The position numbers were made by a program, and so were the translations under genes. A stretch of DNA of 64,000 nt, from assembly GCA_913047675.1 (NCBI GenBank), contig CAJWTO010000002.1, forward strand, positions 6,833-70,832, given 5' to 3'. Below, piece by piece: positions 6,306 through 54,442 of the stretch; within the stretch, counting starts at the first letter, position 1; each line of letters opens with the position of its first letter. Source of the DNA: an uncultured Pseudomonadota bacterium. GTDB taxonomy: Bacteria; Pseudomonadota; Gammaproteobacteria; Ga0077536. The notes under the pieces are model-generated. The model had not been told where the DNA came from. It ran no database searches and saw only the letters and a list, made by a program, of their open reading frames with translations.

Positions 6306-6710
6306 CTATTTGACCGACAGCTCCTGAAGCCAGGTTTCTAGAATCAGCTTTGCAGCAACCGCGTCTAATCCTGCGCGATCAACCTCTTGTTCATAGTTTA
6401 CCGCAGCTCTGGAGGAAAGTCTTTCATCTATAAACTCAACGGGAAGTCGATACCGACCTGTAAGTTGACGAGAAAATCTCTCGATCTCTCGTGTTAGGTT
6501 GTGTTCGTGTCCACTTTTTAAGCTTGGGCGTCCCAATACAAATATATCTGGAGACCATTCTTTGACTAAAATCGTAATAGGGTTCCAATTAATTTTTTTA
6601 TTCGTCGTCGTTATAGTTTTTATAGCGCTCGCACTTCCCGTCAAAGTTTGACCAACTGCGATCCCTATTCGTTTTTCTCCATAATCGAAACTTAACGCTA
6701 TTTTAATCAT
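6306..6710 (-). CDS. ruvX: Holliday junction resolvase-like protein RuvX/YqgF
   Basis: The N-terminus LSFDYGEKRIGIAVG is typical of YqgF. It is 134 aa long. Confidence 0.85.
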   Translation of the reverse strand: MIKIALSFDYGEKRIGIAVGQTLTGSASAIKTITTTNKKINWNPITILVKEWSPDIFVLGRPSLKSGHEHNLTREIERFSRQLTGRYRLPVEFIDERLSSRAAVNYEQEVDRAGLDAVAAKLILETWLQELSVK

Positions 6711-6789
6711 ACGAAGATCTCTTATTGAGCCGTGAAAATATCTCTTTGCTCATTGGTGGTACTCGATATCACTATTAAAGTAGTCAAAC

Positions 6790-7584
6790 CTATTGGGTCG
6801 AAAAATTCTGATCATTGACAAATTTCCACGTTCGAGTGACATGCAATATATCTACCTCGTTTTTAATAGAAGTTGGAAACGGCGCAAAAGGTGCTGCTAA
6901 TTTGACTATTTCGATGGCTGCTTCATCGAGTACATTATGTCCTGATGAGCGGCGGATATTGATTTCTTTGACTGTGCCGTCTTGTCGTAAAGAAACATCG
7001 AGTGATAGGTTTCCGGATAACTCTTTTTCTCTAGCCTTATTTGGATAATTCATATTTCCGATTCGCTCTACTTTAGCGCGCCAGGCTTCCATGTAGGCGG
7101 CATATTTGTAGTCTTTAGTGTTTACACTGATATATTTGTGTCGTACTTTTGGTTCGTCTGACTCCAACTCACTTTGTATTTCGCCCGTTGAACTTGCCAT
7201 AGCCAAGGCACGATTGATTAGTTGTTTGGCATTGGGAACCAGTGCGCTTTTTTTTGCAATGGGTATTTTAAATGACGGAGTTTCTTGGTTCTTGCTGTGA
7301 TTTATTTCTTCAGACGATGGGATAGACTTTAGCGCAGGCACAGGCTTGATGCTGACATCTTCTTTTAGGAGCTTTTGCCCTTGCGGTTCATCAACATGCT
7401 CTCGCACAAGGTTTACTTGAATTGGGGATGGTGACCGCCTAGCAGTCTCGGTTATCGTAGGGTTTATCCCAATGGTTAGCATCGCATGAAAAATGAAAGC
7501 GATTACCAAGGTAAAAGTAAGTCTGTTGCCGGTACTCGCTTCAGTAGTTCGGCTGATAGAGGTATCGTATTTACTTAATTGCAT
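6790..7584 (-). CDS. TonB family C-terminal domain protein
   Basis: It has an N-terminal TM helix, a Pro-rich middle region and a TonB_C-like C-terminal domain. Its position between gshB and ruvX matches Pseudomonas. Confidence 0.55.
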   Translation of the reverse strand: MQLSKYDTSISRTTEASTGNRLTFTLVIAFIFHAMLTIGINPTITETARRSPSPIQVNLVREHVDEPQGQKLLKEDVSIKPVPALKSIPSSEEINHSKNQETPSFKIPIAKKSALVPNAKQLINRALAMASSTGEIQSELESDEPKVRHKYISVNTKDYKYAAYMEAWRAKVERIGNMNYPNKAREKELSGNLSLDVSLRQDGTVKEINIRRSSGHNVLDEAAIEIVKLAAPFAPFPTSIKNEVDILHVTRTWKFVNDQNFSTQ

Positions 7585-37147: not shown

Positions 37148-37564
37148 CTAGCTCGTATGAATCAGTCCCGGATGCGCTTGTTTAAGGAGAGTAGCTGCCT
37201 CACGTGCTTCACTTTCAGTAGCAAAGACCCTGTCTTTGAAAAGAATTACGGGTACGTTCGGATCGACGCAAAGTTGGCCTACTGCGTACTGTCCTTTTTT
37301 TGGAGATAAGACTATATACCAGCCGGTAACTGGCCCAGGTTTATAGCCATTAAGTTTGTACAAAAGTTTTGCAAAGTCGGCGTAGGGACCGCTAGGGTCA
37401 ATCGTTTCAAGATGCTCAGTACTGCCGAATTCGGCTGTTTCTTCCCATTGCCATGGAAGAGCTCCCTCGACATTGCTACCCATCGACTCTTGTCCTCTAA
37501 GTGCTGGGTGGAGCCACCAATAGTGATCTCGTTCCAGTTCGACCTCTTTTTCTTCTTCTCTCAA
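37148..37564 (-). CDS. hypothetical protein (138 aa), translationally coupled to the DMFase-like large subunit
   Basis: It has a 4-nt ATGA-type overlap with the upstream large-subunit gene. I recognised no family for it. Confidence 0.4.
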   Translation of the reverse strand: MREEEKEVELERDHYWWLHPALRGQESMGSNVEGALPWQWEETAEFGSTEHLETIDPSGPYADFAKLLYKLNGYKPGPVTGWYIVLSPKKGQYAVGQLCVDPNVPVILFKDRVFATESEAREAATLLKQAHPGLIHTS

Positions 37565-39969
37565 GGCAGCGCCCCTGCTTTTAAGAATCCGTTTAGAACG
37601 TTCTGCATAATTTGCGAAACGTTGTTTTTATAATCATTGTGCTGCAAAGAACCACACCATGACATCGAACCTACCGAAAATACAGCGCCATCATTGGGTG
37701 TTTTATAGTAGACGATATCGGCGCGCGTCCAAGGATTATTGTCGCCAGTACCTCCTTGAGTATAGCCTCTCGCATTGAATGTCGATTCTTCCGTAACAGA
37801 CACAAAAATATCATTATGTCCCTCAGAGTGAGCGAGAAGGTAGGCTCTATTTGGAGTCCCTAGTTCTAAATCATACCGGTCAAGTTCCAATCCTGCAGCA
37901 CCTCCGCCGACAAGACCAAAATTACCGATGACTTCGTCCGACCCGATCCCTTTCATTATCCATTTACATTCAGGTAGCTCACTATCGGGAGCTCTGCGAT
38001 AGTATGACGAGTAGGTTAATCCAAACGAGGTAAAAGTGACGCCTAATAATTTACTCATCGCTCGACCTCTCACTCGCCAGAGTCCGCCATGCTTTCCGTC
38101 GAAAGCATTGCAGTACTCTCCTGGATTAATAGTCCATGCGCGAGTTCCATTATCGCCTTTTCTAACTTCCACGATATTTGGGTTGTCAGGATGCGGCACA
38201 GTGATCCAATAAAAGCCGTTAGCAGCTAAATATAAGAATCTTCCTCCCTGTAGTTGATAGTCATGATAAGCATCCATTTGCTCTTCAGAGATATATTCCG
38301 GATGATGTCCTGTTAATACGATTGGATAACGGTTTAAAAGATCTACGCCTTCTCTCTGAACGTCTTCGTCTGTATAGATGTCGACGTCATAATCGAGTTC
38401 GTGTAGCCAATCAACTAAATGCAGATCGGCATTAAACTGCCAAATGGATGGTGATAGTACATGCAGATACTTTGGTCGCATATTAAGGATTGGGCGAAGT
38501 CTTGACGATACATTGACGCCCCAGCCATCGCGATAGGATGCATAGGTACCAAGCCCGTAACCTCTTTCTTGATTTAGAAGTAAATCACCTGGCTGCAGCA
38601 GAGGCACTTGCCCTGTTAGCAATTGCGCCACGACAGAGTTTACGCTGAGATTATCGTTGGCGTAAGCCATGTAACTATGAGTCGGCATAATGAGTGCAAT
38701 TTTTGCCGTGGTAGTTCCTTTGGGCGGTCTGACAAAAAACGGGATATAGTCTTCGTATTCAGGTGTTGATTGGCCTTTTACTCTTAAGCGAGCAGCGTAA
38801 ACACCGCTAACCATCCTATCAGGAATTTTCATAGTGAAACTAGGTCGCCAACGAGCATCGTCAACGGTCTCATCATGAAAGTGAATAGCTCCGTATTCTT
38901 GTGGCCCGTGGATAAAACTCATGAAGTGTGAGGACCAGTTGTGTCCCGGTGTACCTCGCACGGGCAAGTTAATTGCCACTCCATGTAGTCTATGAGGCCC
39001 CATATCTACGATGTGCGTAGAGGCCGCATTATCACGTATATTCGCGCTAAAATCCCATGCAGCAACTACGCTCTCTCTAAGCTCTGTTGGAATAGCTTCC
39101 ATTCTTGGGGCACCCATTATCAGCTCGATTTCGGCTCTGCTTAAGGCGCGGTTAGTTATACGTGGTCGATCTATTTTACCGTTATATTTTTGAGTATGCT
39201 CTGGAATAGCCCATGGCTCGGCGAGCTGGCCATAGTGCGCACCTGAAACAGTTCGTCCACAGTCGGGGTCCTTTGCACTAGAGGCCATCATAAATGGCGC
39301 TGAAGTTATTTTTGCCGGCCCATTTTTTACTTTAAAATTTTTCTCCGCCTCAGTATCTGACCGAGGATGCAGCATGCTCGGTCCATGACCTCCGTTAGTA
39401 GCAGTTAAGTAAGGCACCTGGCAGATAAAGCCTTTGCCGTTACTCGCGTCATAACTGACCATGACCTTGTACCAGACTTTCCGCATCATTGCCTTTTTGG
39501 TGCTAAAGGTTTCTATTTTTCCTCGACCTTTTCCAATTTTAAATTCCAGCGCCCCTGCGTCGTTAATAAATAGCCCGTATCCTACTTTTTTGGAGTCGTC
39601 CCACTTTCCTAACAGAGCTTGTTCTCCAACCGCGACACCCTCTGTATCAACAACCGGCGTTGTAGGATAGATATAGGCACACATAGTCAGACTTTCTAAA
39701 TCAAATAGCTCACTTTGAGGGCCTAAAATATAGCTACCCGCCATAAGTGGCTGATTTGCCCCTTTGTACTTTCCGTTGACGCTCGTACGAAATACTTTTT
39801 CTTTGAATCCAGGACCTTCAGGGTTGGTGTCGCCGTTGATTAGTCTAACAATATCTGATTGATACGGTTCACCAAATTCACTATGAACGTAGAAGGTGAT
39901 TTCATCTCCAGGCTCCACCGAGCATTGATCAGAATACCCCGTAATACGCAACATTGAATTTTGTTTCAT
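37561..39969 (-). CDS. N,N-dimethylformamidase large (beta) subunit family protein, paralogue 1
   Basis: It is 802 aa, preceded by a 140-aa small-subunit-like gene. It aligns along its full length with the 755-aa paralogue at 51790-54057. Shared blocks include SSRLRPILNMRPKY, FGLVGGGAAGLELDR and YGAIHFHD. The SD GGGAG lies upstream of the ATG. Confidence 0.55.
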   Translation of the reverse strand: MKQNSMLRITGYSDQCSVEPGDEITFYVHSEFGEPYQSDIVRLINGDTNPEGPGFKEKVFRTSVNGKYKGANQPLMAGSYILGPQSELFDLESLTMCAYIYPTTPVVDTEGVAVGEQALLGKWDDSKKVGYGLFINDAGALEFKIGKGRGKIETFSTKKAMMRKVWYKVMVSYDASNGKGFICQVPYLTATNGGHGPSMLHPRSDTEAEKNFKVKNGPAKITSAPFMMASSAKDPDCGRTVSGAHYGQLAEPWAIPEHTQKYNGKIDRPRITNRALSRAEIELIMGAPRMEAIPTELRESVVAAWDFSANIRDNAASTHIVDMGPHRLHGVAINLPVRGTPGHNWSSHFMSFIHGPQEYGAIHFHDETVDDARWRPSFTMKIPDRMVSGVYAARLRVKGQSTPEYEDYIPFFVRPPKGTTTAKIALIMPTHSYMAYANDNLSVNSVVAQLLTGQVPLLQPGDLLLNQERGYGLGTYASYRDGWGVNVSSRLRPILNMRPKYLHVLSPSIWQFNADLHLVDWLHELDYDVDIYTDEDVQREGVDLLNRYPIVLTGHHPEYISEEQMDAYHDYQLQGGRFLYLAANGFYWITVPHPDNPNIVEVRKGDNGTRAWTINPGEYCNAFDGKHGGLWRVRGRAMSKLLGVTFTSFGLTYSSYYRRAPDSELPECKWIMKGIGSDEVIGNFGLVGGGAAGLELDRYDLELGTPNRAYLLAHSEGHNDIFVSVTEESTFNARGYTQGGTGDNNPWTRADIVYYKTPNDGAVFSVGSMSWCGSLQHNDYKNNVSQIMQNVLNGFLKAGALP

Positions 39970-39992
39970 TTACTTGCTCCCTACTTTATTTT

Positions 39993-40415
39993 TTACATGC
40001 GTATTTCGTAATGAGCGCACAGTGATTTTAGTCTTTTACAGAAGATCGCATGCTCTGCGTCTTCTCTCGTACTATATTTTTCTTTAGTGATTTTTACCGC
40101 ATCACCTCGCGCTCCAGGCAGCACCCCGATTGAGTATTCTTTCCAAGGAATGGTTTCCACAATGGTATGTTTCCCCTTTTGTGGGAACATTCTCAACTTG
40201 TCGACTAACTTTTTTAATACGGGGCTCTGCAAAGGCGGTGGTGTTCCAGGTTGAGTCGCTCCACCTCTTGGAAATTGACGATGTTCTGCTATCAGCGCAT
40301 TACGTTTGTCTTTATCTTTCAGGTGCTCCAGGACATACATTCGCATGTCATAATCGTCTACAGCAGTCAGCGCGTAATTTTGCTGGAGTGCAGTTAATGT
40401 TTTGTTTTGAGCCAT
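39993..40415 (-). CDS. N,N-dimethylformamidase small (alpha) subunit-like protein, paralogue 1
   Basis: It is 140 aa and lies 23 nt upstream of the large subunit. It is homologous to the 108-aa ORF at 54116-54442 (FCKRLKSL vs FRKRWKSL tails). Confidence 0.45.
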   Translation of the reverse strand: MAQNKTLTALQQNYALTAVDDYDMRMYVLEHLKDKDKRNALIAEHRQFPRGGATQPGTPPPLQSPVLKKLVDKLRMFPQKGKHTIVETIPWKEYSIGVLPGARGDAVKITKEKYSTREDAEHAIFCKRLKSLCAHYEIRM

Positions 40416-43673: not shown

Positions 43674-45080
43674 TTATAAGTCTGGTCGCATTGTGTGCCA
43701 TTCGGTCAGATCTTCATAGCCCGCGGCCGCTCTTATGATGGATGATTCATCACCTAATTTCCCAATAAATTGCATAGCAGTAGGCATTCCAGAAGCGTCA
43801 AAGCCATTTGGTACGGTAATGCTGGGATGACCTGAAAAGTTTGTGGGTGCGGCAAATCGTACCAATGGTGCTATATCTTCTATCGCAGCTACTTGCTGCG
43901 GCGGATAATCCGATTGAGGACCTGCTAATCCAGGCATGGCAGGACAAACAAGTACGTCTACTGTCTCTAAGAGTTCATTGATTAACGCTCGTGTAGCTTG
44001 TCTTTGTTTACATGCTTTCGCATACTCTTTCGCACTTACTTGTAGGCCATGTTCTAGAAGTGAGCGGAAAACTGGACCGTAATCATCGGCTTTTTCTGGG
44101 AACAAACCTTCATGCCCACACAAAGCATCAACTGAGCATATTGTCATCCAATGATCGGCGGCTTCGACGATTTCTGGCCGATTAATTTCTATAATTTGAG
44201 AGCCTTCATGTCTCATTAGCTCAACTGCAGTGGCTGTGGCTTGAAACATTTGAGGGTCGCAGTCGGTAGATGAATATTGCTGATCAAACCCTACGGTGAT
44301 GCCCCTTAAGCCTTGATTCGCGGCGGATAAATAGTCGCTACTTTTATCGGAACGGGTCGATCCATCACGTGAGTCGCGCCCCTCAAGTATCTCTAGAACC
44401 ATCGCTGCGTCACGTACGCTACGAGCCATAGGGCCAATATGATCCAGTGTGTCAGATAATGGGAAAACGCCATATCTGCTTATTTTTCCAAAAGTAGGCT
44501 TGATACCTACGACCCCGCAGGCTGCTGAAGGGAACCGAATTGATCCACCGGTATCAGTTCCGAGGCTGGCAAAGCAAAGGGAGGCCCCAGTCGCGCTTCC
44601 TGAACCACTGGAAGAAACTCCTGACCAATGTTCAATGTTCCACGGATTATTCGGAGGCCTATAGTCAGGATGGTAACCATAGAGGGCAAATTCGGTTAGA
44701 TTGAGTTTCCCTAATATCACGGCGCCCGCGCTTTTAAGTTTTTCGACCACCGTGGCGTCGTGTTCTGGTTTGAACTTTTTTCGTATTGTCGAAGCGCAAG
44801 TTGTTTCTATTCCAGTAACATTGACAAGGTCTTTGAGTGCGATAGGAACTCCATGAAGTGGTCCTCGATACAATCCTTTTTTGATTTCTGATTCGGCCTG
44901 AGTTGCTCCTGTAAGAGCGAGTTCGTCTGATATTGAGATGTAACTATTAAGTTTTTTATCTATCTTATACACTCTGTCCAGCATTGCCTCTGTTAATGCA
45001 ACGGGTGATATTTCTTTGCTTTGGATGAGCGGAGCTATAGTTTCGATAGTTTGAGTTAGTAAGTCGGATTCGATAGTCAT
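43674..45080 (-). CDS. amidase (amidase-signature family)
   Basis: It has the AS-family motif GTDTGGSIRFPSAACGVVGIKPTFG. Confidence 0.8.
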   Translation of the reverse strand: MTIESDLLTQTIETIAPLIQSKEISPVALTEAMLDRVYKIDKKLNSYISISDELALTGATQAESEIKKGLYRGPLHGVPIALKDLVNVTGIETTCASTIRKKFKPEHDATVVEKLKSAGAVILGKLNLTEFALYGYHPDYRPPNNPWNIEHWSGVSSSGSGSATGASLCFASLGTDTGGSIRFPSAACGVVGIKPTFGKISRYGVFPLSDTLDHIGPMARSVRDAAMVLEILEGRDSRDGSTRSDKSSDYLSAANQGLRGITVGFDQQYSSTDCDPQMFQATATAVELMRHEGSQIIEINRPEIVEAADHWMTICSVDALCGHEGLFPEKADDYGPVFRSLLEHGLQVSAKEYAKACKQRQATRALINELLETVDVLVCPAMPGLAGPQSDYPPQQVAAIEDIAPLVRFAAPTNFSGHPSITVPNGFDASGMPTAMQFIGKLGDESSIIRAAAGYEDLTEWHTMRPDL

Positions 45081-45109
45081 TTCGCTTTCCCTAGATTCTT
45101 GATAACTGC

Positions 45110-45373
45110 TTAATCGGGTCTTTTAAGTTTAAAAAAATACCAGTAAATATTACTTTTGTCATAAATAGTCTCAGCATAATATTTTTCTTCAGCCAGGTAT
45201 TGGTGCGTTTCGACAATATTTTTTTCAATAAGTTTATCCAGCGCCGCTTTAACTTCAGCGGGAGAAGTTTCGATCCCCATTGCTGTAGATTGTTTTACCG
45301 CATAAGTATTTATGTGATCAAAAGTACTATAGGGTTTTTGCAGAGCGTCTTTTATCCACAGTGTGACCAGCAT
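45110..45373 (-). CDS. hypothetical protein (87 aa)
   Basis: It is a small ORF 4 nt downstream of the SelW-like gene stop. I recognised no family for it. Confidence 0.35.
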   Translation of the reverse strand: MLVTLWIKDALQKPYSTFDHINTYAVKQSTAMGIETSPAEVKAALDKLIEKNIVETHQYLAEEKYYAETIYDKSNIYWYFFKLKRPD

Positions 45374-45377
45374 CGTA

Positions 45378-45599
45378 TTAGACTTCTTTGGCCATAGCTC
45401 GCACCTCAGTCTCTGTCGGAAACCTTCCGCTTAGCTTTTTAGAAAAGATCATTTTATCTGGTTTACTTATCTCAAAAACACCACCGGCGCCTTCCAGCAG
45501 GATAACTTCAATTTTTTCGTATTCCAGTAGCAGCGATCTCACACGGAGTGCTTCGGGCTTATAGTTTCACTGCACGCAGTATTTGATACTAATGTTCAT
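45378..45599 (-). CDS. SelW-like (Rdx family) selenoprotein with in-frame UGA (Sec) in a CxxU motif
   Basis: It is not in the ORF track. Translation with TGA read as U gives MNISIKYCVQUNYKPEALRVRSLLLEYEKIEVILLEGAGGVFEISKPDKMIFSKKLSGRFPTETEVRAMAKEV. This aligns with SelW: YCGAUGYK vs YCVQUNYK, and GFFEV...KLIHSKKKGDG vs GVFEI...KMIFSKKLSG. The ATG overlaps the cinA stop as ATGA. Confidence 0.7.
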
Positions 45600-46825
45600 T
45601 TTTTAATTATCTCGAGTCGTAGAGCATTTAAGAGACTGATAACACTAAATTGTCGGACTCTCTCGTAATCGCCGGGTAATTTCACCAGTTCCACTCGCTC
45701 ACCCTTCGAGTCCGCAATACCTAAAAATGTTTGCCCAGCTGAACTTTTCCCTGGTAAATCATGTTCTCCAGTTGTGGCTAGGCCAATATCACTTCCAAAA
45801 AATTCTCGCGTCGCTTTAGCGAGATTTTTCGCGCCTTCTTGGGTCCCGATGAGATCGTCTTCTAGGCCTAGTATATGTTTTCGGGCCTTAGAGGATCTGG
45901 GCACCAAGCCTCCAACAAATACTTCTCCGAAAGGATCTTTACTTGATAGCCGAGTACTTGCGATCCCTCCACTAGTGACCTCTGTCACGGACATTGTTAA
46001 GTTGTATTGTTTCAGTAGTTTGATGACAACCGATTCCATAGTTTCGTCATCACTTCCAAATATACTATTTCCAAGTAAGTTTCTGACAATAACTTCTTCT
46101 TTCTCGATAGTACTCAAAACTGAGGCTTCAGTTTCGCCTTTAGCGGTGATCCGTACCTTAAGCCCTTCTATGCCGCTAGCGAGAAACGCTAGCGTAGGAT
46201 TCCCTTTTTCATCCAGCTGCTCGATCCTGTCAGACAGGATCTCTGCTAGACGACTTTCGCTGTGCCCCCAAGTCTTCAAAACTTTACTTTTAATAATGGC
46301 TTTCGTTCCTGAGCGTTTTAGTAGGTCAGGTAGAATGGCTGACTCCATCATCTGATGCATTTCATAAGGCACACCTGGTACAGCGTATATCACTTGATTA
46401 CCAATAGGACACATCAGCCCGGGTGCGGTACCAGGTTGTTTCGGGATCGCAACAGCCCCCTTCGGGATCTTTGCCTGACTTAAGTTATTATCCGGCATCG
46501 CTCTTCCGCGAGATTCGAACATATTTCTGATTATTGCAGCAATATCAGCATCAAATTCGAGTTTCACGCCCATCACTTCGGCTATGGCGTCTCTAGTTAT
46601 ATCGTCTTGGGTCGGTCCGAGACCACCGCAGCATATCACGGCATCACTTCTGTTCAGTGCAGTTTTCAGCGCACCTACTATACGGTCATGATTATCCCCT
46701 ACTTTCGTTTGGTGTAGCGAGTCGATCCCAATTTGAGCCAGATGGTCTCCGATCCACGATGAGTTAGTATCTACAATTTGGCCTAGAAGGAGTTCTGTTC
46801 CTATGGCGACAACTTCGCAACGCAT
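45596..46825 (-). CDS. cinA: CinA family protein (MocF-like N-domain + NMN deamidase PncC-like C-domain)
   Basis: It has the CinA N-terminal molybdopterin-binding-like domain and the C-terminal CinA domain. It is 409 aa. Confidence 0.75.
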   Translation of the reverse strand: MRCEVVAIGTELLLGQIVDTNSSWIGDHLAQIGIDSLHQTKVGDNHDRIVGALKTALNRSDAVICCGGLGPTQDDITRDAIAEVMGVKLEFDADIAAIIRNMFESRGRAMPDNNLSQAKIPKGAVAIPKQPGTAPGLMCPIGNQVIYAVPGVPYEMHQMMESAILPDLLKRSGTKAIIKSKVLKTWGHSESRLAEILSDRIEQLDEKGNPTLAFLASGIEGLKVRITAKGETEASVLSTIEKEEVIVRNLLGNSIFGSDDETMESVVIKLLKQYNLTMSVTEVTSGGIASTRLSSKDPFGEVFVGGLVPRSSKARKHILGLEDDLIGTQEGAKNLAKATREFFGSDIGLATTGEHDLPGKSSAGQTFLGIADSKGERVELVKLPGDYERVRQFSVISLLNALRLEIIKK

Positions 46826-48830: not shown

Positions 48831-49667
48831 TTAAAATAAATTTTCCAAGCATCCTGATACCTCTTTTAGTTTGGCGAGATGCTGGTTTGGCGATAAGTCG
48901 CCGCCCAGCGTTCGGATGCAAAGATGAGATAGGCCTATCTCATTCCAATTTTTGACGCGATCTTTCCATTCAGCTTCTCGAGGTCCGACCACAGCTACTC
49001 CAGCCTCTTTTCCTATCTCGAGAGGATTCCGGCCTGCAGCAGATGCGCAGCAAATGATTTTTTCATTTAACTTAGGAAACTCTTCTGGAGTGCATAAGAC
49101 AAACCAACCGTTAGATTGAGTGGCAATCCGGTTTATTACTGCGCCATTTGGAGACGCCTTAGCCCCAATCCACATAGGTATTGGTCTTTGCACCGGCAAG
49201 GGGTTGAGACCAGTGTCTGAGATGGAGTGCCACTCGCCATTAAAGGTAACTTGATCTTGTGTCCAAAGTGCTTTTAATAAGCGCATCTGCTCGTCACAAC
49301 GCTTTCCCCGATTTTTGAAGTCTTCGCCTAAGAAAGTATACTCTTCTTCGCTGCCTCCAACTCCTATTCCTAGTCTGAGCCTTCCCCCGGAAAGGATATC
49401 TATTTCTGCTGCTTGCTTAGCGACTAAGACAGTCTGTCGTGCCGGCAATATAATAACGGAAGGAACTAGCTCGATTGATTCGGTAATGCCGGCAAGATAA
49501 GCCATTAGGGTAAGTGGTTCGTGAAGGTGTTTGTTTCCAGGCCTCAAGATCTGGTCTGGAATGCGGAGGTGATTGTAGCCAAGCTGCTCTGCCATCTGAC
49601 AAAAATCTTTGATAGCTATGATATCATTTTTGAGCTCCCTTACTGGGAGGGATACACCTATTTTCAT
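48831..49667 (-). CDS. LLM-class flavin-dependent oxidoreductase
   Basis: It has a luciferase-like monooxygenase TIM-barrel pattern. It overlaps the formamidase gene by 4 nt. Confidence 0.6.
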   Translation of the reverse strand: MKIGVSLPVRELKNDIIAIKDFCQMAEQLGYNHLRIPDQILRPGNKHLHEPLTLMAYLAGITESIELVPSVIILPARQTVLVAKQAAEIDILSGGRLRLGIGVGGSEEEYTFLGEDFKNRGKRCDEQMRLLKALWTQDQVTFNGEWHSISDTGLNPLPVQRPIPMWIGAKASPNGAVINRIATQSNGWFVLCTPEEFPKLNEKIICCASAAGRNPLEIGKEAGVAVVGPREAEWKDRVKNWNEIGLSHLCIRTLGGDLSPNQHLAKLKEVSGCLENLF

Positions 49668-50674
49668 CTGTTTACCTTAGTAGGAGAATTAATGGCATCG
49701 AACAATCTACTTTTGGGATACTCTGCGCCTACAACGTGTTGAATGGTCTGGAGACGCACCATTTGGTAAGTTCGGATCCTAAATGCAGGGTCACAGGACA
49801 TGCGAATATACAGGTCTTTTGGCGGCACCTCATATTCATCTGCCAGCCATTGCATTAAGTTATCTGTCGCGTCGTAGACAGCATGTTCCATTGGTAAATT
49901 AATACCTATCGCTACTATACTTTCAGGTTTTTCTATTCTGACACAGGGTAGGCGCTTGTTAGAAATTACTCTACAGGATAGTTGGACTGTGGATCTAGTC
50001 TCATCCGCAATTCCGGTAAATTCTGTATCGCCCTGCCCGCCGTGCACATCGCCTATATAGAGGAGACCACCTTCATTATAAGAGTTCAGATAAATAGTAT
50101 GACCGGCACAAACATCTCTACAGTCAATATTGCCACCGAACGGGCCTTGCCCAAGTACTGAGGTAAACACCTCGCGTTCGGGTGCGGTGGCTAATGTGCC
50201 CACAAAGGGTTCAAGAGGCCAGCTCAGATTTTCTGAGTATTTGGCTGTCCCATCTCTGGTAAACCCACTTGGGCCTTTGAGGTGTTCTATCACCTGAACA
50301 TGACCTTCGGTACAGTCATGATAGCGGAGCGAGTCGCCTAGAGGGCCAATCTTCGGTAAGATGCCGGAGAATCCGTAACGCCACGGATCCACCCAGTCAA
50401 TATCTACTGCGACAACATCGCCTGAGTGACACCCCTTAATAAAAATGGGACCGACAACCGGATTGAATAGGCCGGGGGTTGCATCTGCCAACTCAGAAAA
50501 GTGCGTACCACTAAACCCTTGGATAGTTGGATCATCGGAATCATCTGATATCATGCCAGAAAGAGCATCGTCGGTTTCGATTTGAAAAGTTTCGCCCGAT
50601 TCCACATGGAGGCACGGCTCATCGCGATTATCGAAAGCATATTTTTGGACCTGTCCTCTTTTTAAAATCTTCAT
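49664..50674 (-). CDS. acetamidase/formamidase family protein (FmdA/AmdA)
   Basis: It is FmdA_AmdA-like over its length. The start was chosen at the ATG preceded by the SD AAGGGGA rather than the upstream TTG at 50728. Confidence 0.6.
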   Translation of the reverse strand: MKILKRGQVQKYAFDNRDEPCLHVESGETFQIETDDALSGMISDDSDDPTIQGFSGTHFSELADATPGLFNPVVGPIFIKGCHSGDVVAVDIDWVDPWRYGFSGILPKIGPLGDSLRYHDCTEGHVQVIEHLKGPSGFTRDGTAKYSENLSWPLEPFVGTLATAPEREVFTSVLGQGPFGGNIDCRDVCAGHTIYLNSYNEGGLLYIGDVHGGQGDTEFTGIADETRSTVQLSCRVISNKRLPCVRIEKPESIVAIGINLPMEHAVYDATDNLMQWLADEYEVPPKDLYIRMSCDPAFRIRTYQMVRLQTIQHVVGAEYPKSRLFDAINSPTKVNR

Positions 50675-50785
50675 GAGCTCATTCCCCTTATTAATATCTG
50701 TCGAAATTGCGACTAATTTGTAAACCAACTTTAATATTCAATGAATTTTAATACAATAAGTGTCGACTGAAGCTAAGACAAGCGG

Positions 50786-51789: not shown

Positions 51790-54057
51790 TTAGTCGGTTA
51801 TGGGGCCATCTGTTACAAATCGATCCAATACATTTTTGGTTATTTTAGAGACATTATTTTTGTAACTATTATGCGAAAGCGAGCCCGGCCATGCAATGGA
51901 GCTAGTTGAGAATACGCCTCCCCCGTTGTTAGTCTCGTAAAATACTAGATCAGCTCTTATCAGTGGGTTTTCCTGTCCACCAAGCCCTGGATAGTTAATT
52001 AGTAGCTCTTCACAAACAAGTAGATAAAGATCGGTATGGTCTTCGGACGAAGCGAGCACGTAAGCATTTGGATGTGTGCCTAAGCTCACATCAGCTCTAT
52101 CTAATTCAAGCCCGGCTGCACCGCCTCCGACGAGTCCAAAGTCTCCAATTTTTTCGTCAGGTCGTACTCCTGACATTATCCATTTGACAGGTTTTTTAAA
52201 GCTATCCGGTTTTCGAGTATAAAATGAAGAAATATCAAAACCCTGTGCGGTAAACCCCGAACCGACGATTTTTTGTGGCGCGCGGCCATTTCTTCGCCAG
52301 AGGCCGCCATATTCCCCAGTAAAAGAATGATAATACTCTCCAGTTTGTGCCTCCCAACCTCGAATGCCTCCTTCAGCTCTTCGTACCTCAATGATTCCGT
52401 CCGCCTCCTCGTGAAAGGCAATACGCCAATACCAACCATTTGCGCCAAGATACATCAGACGACCACCTCTATCCTGGTAGGTAGCCATTGCGTCCCACAT
52501 CTCTTTTGAATGATATTCAGGATGTGATGAGGATAGCACAACTTTGTATCGCTCCAGACAGTCCACCCCTTCATAGTGCAGTTCTTCATCTGTGATCACG
52601 TCATAGTCATATTTCATTGCTTCAAGCCAATTTATAATGTGTGTATCCGCATTAAATTGCCAGAGGGTGGACCCTTTCCCGCCAAGCCAGCTTTTATACT
52701 TTGGACGCATATTTAGTATAGGTCGCAAACGGGACGAATAGCACACTCCGGATCCATCAGTATGTACGTCGTAACAGCTAGGACCATACTCTCGATGTTC
52801 GTTCCTGTAGAGATCTTGGTGTTGATGTTCGACCAACCGTCCGGCTAGTAATTGAGCAATAGGTGCATCTGTCCCCATATGCTCATTGGCATAGGCCATA
52901 TAGCTGGCTGTGGGCAGTAGAAAACAGATTTTGGCTGTAGCCTTCCCTTTAGGAGGTAGAACGGCAAATGGTACATAGTCTTCTTCTTCTAGGTTGTTAC
53001 CGCATCGTAGCCTGGCAGCATATAACCCACTTTTCAGACTTTTTGGGATTTTAAGTGTAACGTCTATCTCCCATCCTGCGTCATGAACATCGTCGTCATG
53101 AAAGTGTATCGCACCATATTGGTTTGGCGCATGGCTCCAGTTCATTTCGTCGCCATTCCAATTCCATCCAGTCATTCCCCGAACCGGCATGTTGACGAGC
53201 TTTCCGTTGATGCGATTACCAGATACATCAGAAACATTCATAGATTTAATATTTTTAGAAAAGTCCCACGCGGCTAAAACATCTATTGCCATTAAGCTTT
53301 GATTTTGACGGTATTTTAGTTGCTCTATTTCCATGGGGTTTAGAGCTCTAGAAGCAATAGCGGGACTATCTATTTTGCCGTTGAAGTGATTCTGACAAAC
53401 AGTTCTATTTTTATCGAACTTTAGGAAGTTGGCGCCTATAGTTGCGACTCGTGCACAGTTTTTCATCCCGCGATTACGGACTGTATATTTCTTCTTAGCC
53501 GAGTCATTAATTTTTGCGTGATTATGCAATGCTTCTTGCGTTAAGGACACGCTTTTTGTTTTTGCATCGTAAGTAGCGCTTACGAAGTACCAGTTCCTGG
53601 GTAAGAAACTTTTTCCTGTAGAGAATTCTTCCAGTTTACCTTTCCCAAATCCGAGCGTTAGCGTTAGACCGCAGTTTTGCGACCCAAGCGAAAGGTAGGC
53701 GCCGTTTGAATCCCGTTGGGACCAATTCCCTATAATAGTCTGCTTATTGTTTTCTGGTATTGTTGGCCAAATAAACGCCTGTAATGTGAAGCTTTCTAGA
53801 GAATTAAAGTGTTCACTTTCTTCCAATTGTATAAAGGAACCTGCATGGATAACCTGCCGTCTCCCCGGGTAGGTCCCATTTGCTTTTGTTTTGATCGGAT
53901 GTTCTTTATATCCTGGCCCGTCGGGATTTAGATCGCCGCATATCAGTTTGACGAAGTCGGCCTTAAAAGAGTTAGCCCGGCAGTTAACCATGAAGTTAAT
54001 TGATTCTTCAGGTGCGACACTAGTTCGGTCTGCGTAAGCAGTTATTTTCATCGTCAT
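51790..54057 (-). CDS. N,N-dimethylformamidase large (beta) subunit family protein, paralogue 2
   Basis: It is 755 aa and colinear with the 802-aa paralogue. It is preceded by a small-subunit-like gene. Confidence 0.55.
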   Translation of the reverse strand: MTMKITAYADRTSVAPEESINFMVNCRANSFKADFVKLICGDLNPDGPGYKEHPIKTKANGTYPGRRQVIHAGSFIQLEESEHFNSLESFTLQAFIWPTIPENNKQTIIGNWSQRDSNGAYLSLGSQNCGLTLTLGFGKGKLEEFSTGKSFLPRNWYFVSATYDAKTKSVSLTQEALHNHAKINDSAKKKYTVRNRGMKNCARVATIGANFLKFDKNRTVCQNHFNGKIDSPAIASRALNPMEIEQLKYRQNQSLMAIDVLAAWDFSKNIKSMNVSDVSGNRINGKLVNMPVRGMTGWNWNGDEMNWSHAPNQYGAIHFHDDDVHDAGWEIDVTLKIPKSLKSGLYAARLRCGNNLEEEDYVPFAVLPPKGKATAKICFLLPTASYMAYANEHMGTDAPIAQLLAGRLVEHQHQDLYRNEHREYGPSCYDVHTDGSGVCYSSRLRPILNMRPKYKSWLGGKGSTLWQFNADTHIINWLEAMKYDYDVITDEELHYEGVDCLERYKVVLSSSHPEYHSKEMWDAMATYQDRGGRLMYLGANGWYWRIAFHEEADGIIEVRRAEGGIRGWEAQTGEYYHSFTGEYGGLWRRNGRAPQKIVGSGFTAQGFDISSFYTRKPDSFKKPVKWIMSGVRPDEKIGDFGLVGGGAAGLELDRADVSLGTHPNAYVLASSEDHTDLYLLVCEELLINYPGLGGQENPLIRADLVFYETNNGGGVFSTSSIAWPGSLSHNSYKNNVSKITKNVLDRFVTDGPITD

Positions 54058-54115
54058 TTTAAAAGGCCCCCATTATTTTTTACTGAATAAACCCCAACGG
54101 TCTCAATTAAGTGGT

Positions 54116-54442
54116 TTAAGGTTTGAGTGTCTCTCCCGTTAAAGACTTCCATCTTTTTCGGAAAATATACCACTCGGCATCGGATTGACTGCTGAAGGTT
54201 TTTGGTAATTTCACTACCTGCTTCCCAGCCACTCCGGATGTCTTAGCAAGTTGCCAAAGTCGATTGGGTTTAATGACTAGCAGACAGAATTTATCTTTCA
54301 TGGGGATACCACGAAATTTATTGAGAAGTCGTTGCAGCTCCGGACTGTGGTGACCGATTGGATTCCGTTTAAACTCGGCTATAAGCTCCCTGTCATTAGA
54401 GGACGATATAAATTTTTCTCCAGGATTTTTTCCCATTTCCAT
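54116..54442 (-). CDS. N,N-dimethylformamidase small (alpha) subunit-like protein, paralogue 2
   Basis: It is 108 aa and lies 58 nt upstream of large subunit 2. It is homologous to the C-terminal 70 aa of ORF 39993-40415. Confidence 0.45.
   Translation of the reverse strand: MEMGKNPGEKFISSSNDRELIAEFKRNPIGHHSPELQRLLNKFRGIPMKDKFCLLVIKPNRLWQLAKTSGVAGKQVVKLPKTFSSQSDAEWYIFRKRWKSLTGETLKP

Follow-up and report, generated by a model that had tools for sequence, protein, structure and literature searches.

The window, that is the whole stretch of 64,000 nucleotides analysed here, very probably holds on its minus strand a genuine gene for a SelW-like (Rdx) protein of thioredoxin fold with a Cys8-x-x-Sec11 motif, in which an in-frame UGA is recoded to selenocysteine. 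The gene stands second in a string of four, behind cinA and ahead of a small conserved gene, orf87, and an amidase gene (Table 1).

Table 1 Features of the SelW-like gene and of its neighbours (positions are those of the window).
Feature	Position	Strand	Remark
CinA-family gene (cinA, NMN deamidase-related)	45596..46825	-	Pfam MoCF_biosynth, CinA_KH and CinA; TIGR00200 284 bits vs 243
SelW-like (Rdx family) selenoprotein gene (selW)	45378..45599	-	73 codons including one Sec codon, plus TAA stop
Cys8 codon TGC, resolving Cys of CxxU	45576..45578	-	C invariant in all homologues
In-frame TGA, read as selenocysteine (U11 of CxxU)	45567..45569	-	column conservation in relatives
Putative SECIS apical hairpin CUC-CGUGU-GAG, 3 bp and 5-nt loop	45538..45548	-	register of the family hairpin
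Possible extended SECIS (tentative)	45529..45552	-	lower stem AGCA 45552-45549 / UGCU 45532-45529, 5-nt 3′ bulge
orf87	45110..45373	-	conserved protein, starts 4 nt after the selW stop
Amidase-signature enzyme, last of the four-gene string	43674..45080	-	Pfam Amidase 366.8 bits

Reading frame, family and predicted fold

An earlier note on this DNA had read a 73-aa SelW/Rdx frame on the minus strand through the TGA at 45569-45567. We re-read the sequence and recovered the same frame of 73 sense codons, from ATG 45599-45597 to TAA 45380-45378, with this single in-frame TGA. The gene reads MNISIKYCVQ-U-NYKPEALRVRSLLLEYEKIEVILLEGAGGVFEISKPDKMIFSKKLSGRFPTETEVRAMAKEV, starting as MNISIKYCVQ[TGA]NYKPEALRVR and ending in AMAKEV, and its product of 73 residues has a mass of about 8 kDa. 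The same note had described the six-frame list as empty between cinA and the 87-aa ORF, which turned out to be wrong: the list contains a 54-aa ORF from GTG 45542 to 45378, corresponding to the C-terminal three quarters of the SelW-like gene. Public pipelines call either this fragment (entries P0002-P0005) or nothing, and the 54-aa ORF bears at JGI the label 'selT/selW/selH-like putative selenoprotein'. Ordinary gene finders miss or shorten the gene because its TGA, a stop codon for them, would encode selenocysteine. We observed also that in public collections the Sec residue of SelW-like proteins is widely stored as Trp, giving a CxxW motif (P0001 and P0006-P0031; 67 of the 89 motif-bearing representatives), and that other public entries are 50-60-aa fragments starting after the UGA, a systematic annotation artefact.

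With U replaced by C, the protein matched the Pfam family Rdx (PF10262) over residues 2-67 of 73, a match that spans the TGA, with 56.2 bits for a cut-off of 22.6 (E = 4e-15), and the NCBIfam model TIGR02174 (CXXU_selWTH) with 52.0 bits, above the curated cut-off of 34.2. The best-scoring NCBIfam model was NF041051 (SelTWH_Campy), with 78.4 bits over residues 3-69; as this score falls short of the equivalog cut-off (88), the gene is placed only in the subfamily, outside the NF041051 equivalog. The AlphaFold model, for which P0001 (the database copy, carrying W in place of U) and an 18-sequence alignment were used, was confident (pLDDT 92.2, pTM 0.81). It exhibited the predicted topology b1-[CxxU]-a1-b2-b3-b4-a2 (E2-8, motif 8-11, H14-24, E31-37, E42-46, E49-53, H63-71) and superimposed on the structures 2FA8, 2OBK, 2OKA, 2OJL, 2P0G and 3DEX with TM scores of 0.87-0.91 and rmsd values of 1.2-1.4 Å. 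Weaker structural matches were obtained with MIEN1 (2LJK) and mouse SelW (2NPB), at TM 0.68-0.70, followed by thioredoxins. The closest solved sequences are bacterial 'SelW-related' structural-genomics proteins, and the CxxC motif of 3DEX and 2FA8 aligns on C8/U11. HMM scores above cut-offs, sequence matches to solved structures and fold all agree with the membership in the SelW/Rdx family that had been proposed, and a thiol-oxidoreductase-type function of the protein would be expected.

Conservation of the TGA codon

The codon in the U column was followed in relatives by scans of different design. A genome scan, restricted to one genome per species and anchored on the peptide MNISI[EK]YC on the 5′ side of U, showed TGA in 76 of 76 loci. 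These loci represent about a dozen lineages, among them Gamma-, Alpha- and Deltaproteobacteria/Desulfobacterota, Calditrichota, Planctomycetota, Chloroflexota, Zixibacteria, Marinimicrobia, Gemmatimonadota and Actinomycetota, and MNISI[EK]YC..U is conserved across phyla in them. In a U-blind metagenome scan, whose query begins after U so that the codon itself is invisible to the scan, TGA was present in all 25 loci of the NYKPEALRV clade, and the YCTQCRW sister clade carried a Cys codon in the U column in 23 loci (17 TGC and 6 TGT). TGA occupies the U column in L001-L013 too, and the smaller comparisons gave it in 7/7 and 6/6 loci.

At the protein level, an exhaustive search of representatives gave in the U column 67 W (TGA read under code 4), 20 C, 1 S and 1 G. 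A word-indexed protein search returned a full-length 73-aa entry and homologues of 75-80 aa (41-46% identity), with 'W' in the U column. The DNA behind the W-bearing entries has TGA, and translation under table 11 does not reproduce the query from these loci. As the underlying DNA shows TGA, the W is an artefact of gene callers that apply code 4 to short, low-GC contigs.

The position given to the TGA, exactly at the second redox residue of CxxU, was borne out by the Cys homologues that align there: 3DEX and 2FA8, the 20 CxxC representatives and the 23 TGC/TGT loci. Cys orthologues at the U column, which the earlier note had proposed to look for, were thus found in the YCTQCRW clade and among the representatives. 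A frameshift at this column was never seen in relatives, the TGA being conserved in orthologues and in distant homologues.

The part of the gene upstream of and around the TGA behaves as coding sequence. The Cys8 codon is TGC in the window and TGT in L007-L014, and since this change is synonymous the 5′ part is translated; over codons 12-23, five close lineages exhibited only synonymous differences. The dN/dS of the SelW-like gene was 0.16-0.27 in comparison with L093 and with the repaired L034 sequence, at a pS of 0.3-0.5; the value of 0.86 against the very close L014 comes from only about 10 substitutions and is uninformative. The gene is intact in L090 and L140-L145; L090 and five of the six further assemblies (same population, other samples) encode an identical protein.

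The putative SECIS hairpin and the alternative readings

In the standard bacterial route, the UGA would be recoded to selenocysteine through a SECIS hairpin located in the coding sequence immediately 3′ of it, which would recruit SelB and Sec-tRNA(Sec); here the apical loop would be CGUGU at 45545-41. The family hairpin, some 15 nt downstream of the UGA, lies at nt 19-35 (numbered from the U of UGA), with the consensus GCCGCC-AGUCU-GGCGGC and variants such as GCUUCC...GGAAGC and GCGGCA...UGCCGC. In an ungapped alignment of 75 sequences, 88.6% of the cells were paired, compared to 21-49% when the 3′ arm was slid. Covariation was marked, with 57 cells changed on both sides and an observed score reached by 0 of 500 shuffles, and loop G26 was invariant in the 75 sequences. 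A clean hairpin of 6-8 bp with a GUU loop was seen in the SelW-like genes of L001-L006 and L013.

The earlier note had proposed CUC-CGUGU-GAG, 3′ of the UGA, as the SECIS candidate. Its location, register and loop are supported, but its stem is atypically weak and fails the strict bSECIS pattern. The loop C25-G26-U27-G28-U29 (45545-45541) stands in the family register, and the window forms four of the seven family pairs, namely G19-C35 followed by C.U and A.A mismatches and then CUC/GAG. The energy in the canonical register is -0.7 kcal/mol for the window (-0.7 to -1.2 for the window, L014 and L034) compared to a median of -9.3, and these three are among the four weakest of 79 loci. The local MFE of the three, -4.5 to -5.3 kcal/mol, is likewise among the weakest, for a family median of -10.4. 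If a 5-nt bulge is allowed, 7 bp form in the window element; the folds with the AGCA/UGCU lower stem reach only -3.2 to -4.1 kcal/mol (lower stem -3.2, rival fold -4.1). Substitutions of L034, L093 and L112 within this extended element fall on unpaired positions or keep the pairing. Just 3′ of the putative SECIS, position 45528 (gene nt 72) is A in the window (CUA, Leu) and G (CUG) in the near-identical assemblies compared at this site (L014, L090, L091 and L140-L145), a synonymous variant.

The window element was compared with the bSECIS constraints given in PMC13188914 (Fig. 2), which include an upper stem of 4-16 bp and an MFE of -7.5 kcal/mol or lower. It passes for loop size (5 nt), for the loop G and the following U (G at the second loop position) and for the UGA-loop spacing of 21 nt; it fails for the upper stem, CUC/GAG having only 3 contiguous bp. 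The MFE is marginal: the values were -7.0 kcal/mol over 60 nt, -8.1 over 68 nt and -3 to -4.5 for the local hairpin, and the 68-nt fold was not better than shuffles (z = +0.43), so that thermodynamics alone neither supports nor refutes a SECIS here. The strict pattern search yielded no hairpin for the window or for L014, L034, L090, L093, L112 and L095. It was passed by 88 of 100 Sec forms and also by 17 of 20 Cys-form controls, and because of these controls the structural criteria are of low specificity in GC-rich genes. The Cys-form YCTQCRW clade (L106-L139, about 65% GC), which has no need for a SECIS, folds at a median of -9.9 kcal/mol. As GC-rich Cys forms fold as well as Sec forms, the SECIS argument is based on covariation and register rather than energy. 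It is accepted in published reviews that some genuine bSECIS elements fall outside the model (PMC13188914).

The loop was examined further in the NYKPEALRV subclade. Among 19 distinct sequences, CUC-CGU-GUG (nt 22-30; CUCCGUGUG) never varies, across contig GC contents of 37-72% and protein identities to the window down to about 33%, and the third positions of the four preceding codons vary freely. On these sequence grounds, the apex of the putative SECIS is under RNA-level constraint. Most members of the subclade keep the pairs 20-34 and 21-33, the latter covarying as C-G, A-U and U-A; the close clade of the window is alone in lacking both. In the window's clade only C24-G30 and U23-A31 are universal, the close relatives being too similar to probe the lower stem. 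RNAalifold gave no consensus helix for the NYKPEALRV subclade, and none of the three lower stems compared (altA, altB and altC) was established. An Rfam search of the region gave no match at gathering or permissive thresholds; to our knowledge, the bacterial SECIS is not a curated Rfam family. We would propose, tentatively and with some doubt, that the clade of the window carries either a minimal non-canonical bSECIS (a 3-bp stem with the invariant CUCCGUGUGAG, read mainly by sequence by a lineage-specific SelB) or a selenoprotein gene whose SECIS is beginning to erode and which is beginning to be lost, two independent lesions being already present in a sister population. In either case, the clade would lend itself to testing the least structure with which a bacterial SECIS can work.

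The weak stem bears also on whether the gene still functions. The family assignment could be right and selenocysteine no longer, or poorly, inserted, with the SECIS stem eroded and/or the Sec machinery lost and the gene drifting towards loss. No other hairpin of the family is as weak, and none in the close clade passes the strict stem rule. Two assemblies of a sister population, L034 and L112, which share 98% identity with one another and about 90% with the window, carry different lesions in selW with cinA, orf87 and amidase intact: L034 (10001-10218) has lost 1 nt from an A5/A6 run, which puts the last 20 codons out of frame, and in L112 (3968-4100) an in-frame deletion of 87 nt removes GGVFEI...GRFPTE, the conserved core. 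These lesions may reflect either decay of the gene in the sister population or errors of assembly, the homopolymer run of L034 being compatible with the latter. Protein-level constraint is looser in selW than in its neighbours (ratio of 0.2-0.9 compared to 0.1), with a pN 3-4 times that of the flanking genes. Such a decay also fits with the Sec machinery genes being missing from the window: the scan of its 64 kb (Pfam scans of about 56 ORFs for selA, selB and selD) revealed no selA, selB, selD or tRNA-Sec, a result that is uninformative for about 2% of a genome. Equally uninformative for a sample of this size, the window contains no TGA-interrupted selenoprotein frame besides the SelW-like gene. 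The only other long TGA-interrupted frame, a YqgF/RuvX-like one at 6306-6842 (minus strand), was rejected as a spurious upstream extension, the real start lying after the TGA.

Against such a decay, all three other lineages and at least eight independent assemblies from the population of the window retain an intact start codon, TGA, CxxU motif and reading frame. The invariance of the loop nucleotides, the dN/dS and the synonymous-only changes of codons 12-23 given above, and the published exceptions to the bSECIS model speak against it too. Decay keeps some weight because of the weak stem and the sister-population lesions, and we consider it unlikely.

The remaining readings concern the TGA itself. 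The real product could be the 54-aa ORF starting at GTG 45542, with the upstream 19 codons and the TGA non-coding; this is what gene callers deliver (P0002-P0005). Such a protein would have neither strand b1 nor the redox motif, but both the Pfam match and the fold extend over residues 2-67, MNISI[EK]YC..U is retained across phyla, the GTG is not conserved as a start in homologues, and the upstream changes are synonymous or conservative, so that we hold this reading for very improbable. The TGA could instead be a sense codon, Trp or Gly under genetic code 4 or 25, as the W at the U column of P0001 and of 67 representative proteins would have it, but the DNA has TGA there, phyla with the standard code have the same TGA, and the W is the artefact of gene callers on short contigs described above. 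In the window TGA is an ordinary stop: of the 52 ORFs with 200 aa or more, 12 end in it, among them cinA, where it stands at the conserved C-terminus. Finally, one substitution suffices to turn TGC or TGT into TGA, by sequencing error or by a recent nonsense mutation of a Cys codon that would leave a plain pseudogene; the same TGA in more than 100 independent loci and assemblies speaks against it. The comparative TGA data and the use of TGA as an ordinary stop therefore exclude a reassigned code, a nonsense pseudogene and a sequencing error, for which we see practically no chance.

With the TGA read as a selenocysteine codon, the gene implies Sec decoding in the source organism, whose genome should therefore hold selABCD and where selenocysteine would actually be inserted.

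Gene string and neighbourhood

The order cinA-selW-orf87-amidase was found in all close relatives (L007-L012, L014, L034, L090-L093, L112 and L140-L145) and again in L095-L097 and L102, where CinA is 72-73%, SelW 45-50%, orf87 42-46% and the amidase 67% identical to the proteins of the window. The junctions are tight, with an ATGA overlap between cinA and selW in the close clade and in L102, 7 nt in L095, and a gap of 4-15 nt between selW and orf87. In the window, the cinA stop TGA is at 45598-45596 and is overlapped by the selW ATG, orf87 starts at 45373, 4 nt past the TAA, and the amidase gene follows orf87 after 29 nt. The operon-like order of cinA, selenoprotein, hypothetical protein and amidase suggested in the earlier note was therefore recovered, overlap and spacings included, with tight junctions kept down to 72% CinA identity. 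The four genes would be transcribed together, and selW is probably coupled translationally to cinA through the ATGA overlap. A promoter and terminator scan gave consensus-level matches only; a terminator-like hairpin inside the coding sequence (45500-45481) was dismissed, as it is disrupted in L014.

The orf87 product had no Pfam or NCBIfam family match, and its gene directly follows selW in all syntenic loci; it is possibly a functional partner of the SelW-like protein. The amidase (43674-45080) scored below every NCBIfam equivalog cut-off. Other members of the SelW-like family have other neighbours, for example an upstream AhpC/Prx gene in the low-GC group: on marine contigs of 33-34% GC (L001-L006 and L013; 41-46% identity), the SelW-like gene lies directly downstream of an AhpC-TSA/Redoxin (peroxiredoxin-like) gene.

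The rest of the window is an ordinary gammaproteobacterial chromosome, with hemA-prfA-prmC, lolB-ispE-tRNA-Gln-prs-rplY-pth-ychF, pyrB, gshB and hemCD. We noted in addition two paralogous N,N-dimethylformamidase-like pairs on the minus strand (37561-40415 and 51790-54442), in each of which a small DMF_alpha ORF (39993-40415 and 54116-54442) accompanies a large DMFA2_C subunit (802 and 755 aa). A formamidase gene (FmdA_AmdA, 49664-50728, minus strand) and the amidase gene of the string lie near these pairs. The DMF pairs, the formamidase and the amidase form a neighbourhood of amide and C1-compound catabolism around the selenoprotein gene.

Over 43674-46825, the comparison of the window with L014 gave a mosaic. 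cinA was 87.8% identical at the nucleotide level (pS 0.37), and selW was 95.4%, orf87 98.5% and the amidase gene 96.8% identical (pS 0.10), a pattern that suggests a recombination boundary at or near the cinA/selW junction.

Relation to known selenoproteins

Of the prokaryotic selenoprotein families in marine metagenomes, that of the SelW-like CxxU proteins is the most abundant, with 48 members in the Sargasso Sea and 427 Sec compared to 56 Cys forms in GOS (PMC1088965, PMC2398784). Earlier work has described sister genomes that lost SelW-like genes (PMC1794560), and the bacterial and eukaryotic SelW selenoproteins probably evolved Sec independently (PMC1088965). The gene of the window adds a gammaproteobacterial, cinA-linked member to this commonest marine selenoprotein family, and it restores a real 8-kDa redox protein that is missing or truncated in every public gene call for an abundant marine population. 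The points of interest are its clade-specific minimal SECIS, the cinA-linked gene string and the lesions in the sister population. The weak SECIS stem, together with a loop whose conservation is perfect, gives a concrete if modest indication of what a bacterial SECIS minimally requires, and the neighbouring CinA NMN-deamidase-like protein, orf87 and amidase provide a context for the function of SelW-like proteins.

Among solved structures, the Cys Rdx proteins 2FA8 (Atu0228), 2OBK, 2OKA, 2OJL, 2P0G (V. cholerae SelW-related) and 3DEX (SAV_2001) share the fold and have CxxC on C8/U11; they differ in having Cys for Sec and no SECIS, are about 24-31% identical to the protein of the window and are about 10-30 residues longer. 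Mammalian SelW (2NPB) and MIEN1 (2LJK) share the thioredoxin-like b-a-b-b-b-a fold with CxxU or CxxC after strand 1, and the eukaryotic SECIS, unlike the bacterial hairpin, is located in the 3′ UTR and has an unrelated structure. Within NCBIfam, the Campylobacter-type SelT/SelW/SelH (seleno)protein model NF041051 gives the best score, yet one below its equivalog cut-off. Compared with the bSECISearch consensus, the window shares the 5-nt loop with G second and then U and the 21-nt spacing, and differs by a stem of 3 and not at least 4 bp.

The nearest known system is that of the bacterial SelW-like selenoproteins (TIGR02174, 'SelT/SelW/SelH family protein'; PMC1088965, PMC2398784), with which the gene shares the HMM family, the CxxU motif with UGA second, the small size, the marine origin and a SECIS that follows immediately on the 3′ side of the UGA and has a G in its small apical loop. 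Nothing fundamental differs from these marine proteins. What sets the gene apart is the 'NYKPEALRV' subclade with its invariant CUCCGUGUG apex, the 3-bp stem in the close clade and the embedding in the conserved cinA-selW-orf87-amidase string. The SelW-like gene is thus a real, new and ordinary member of an already well-known family.
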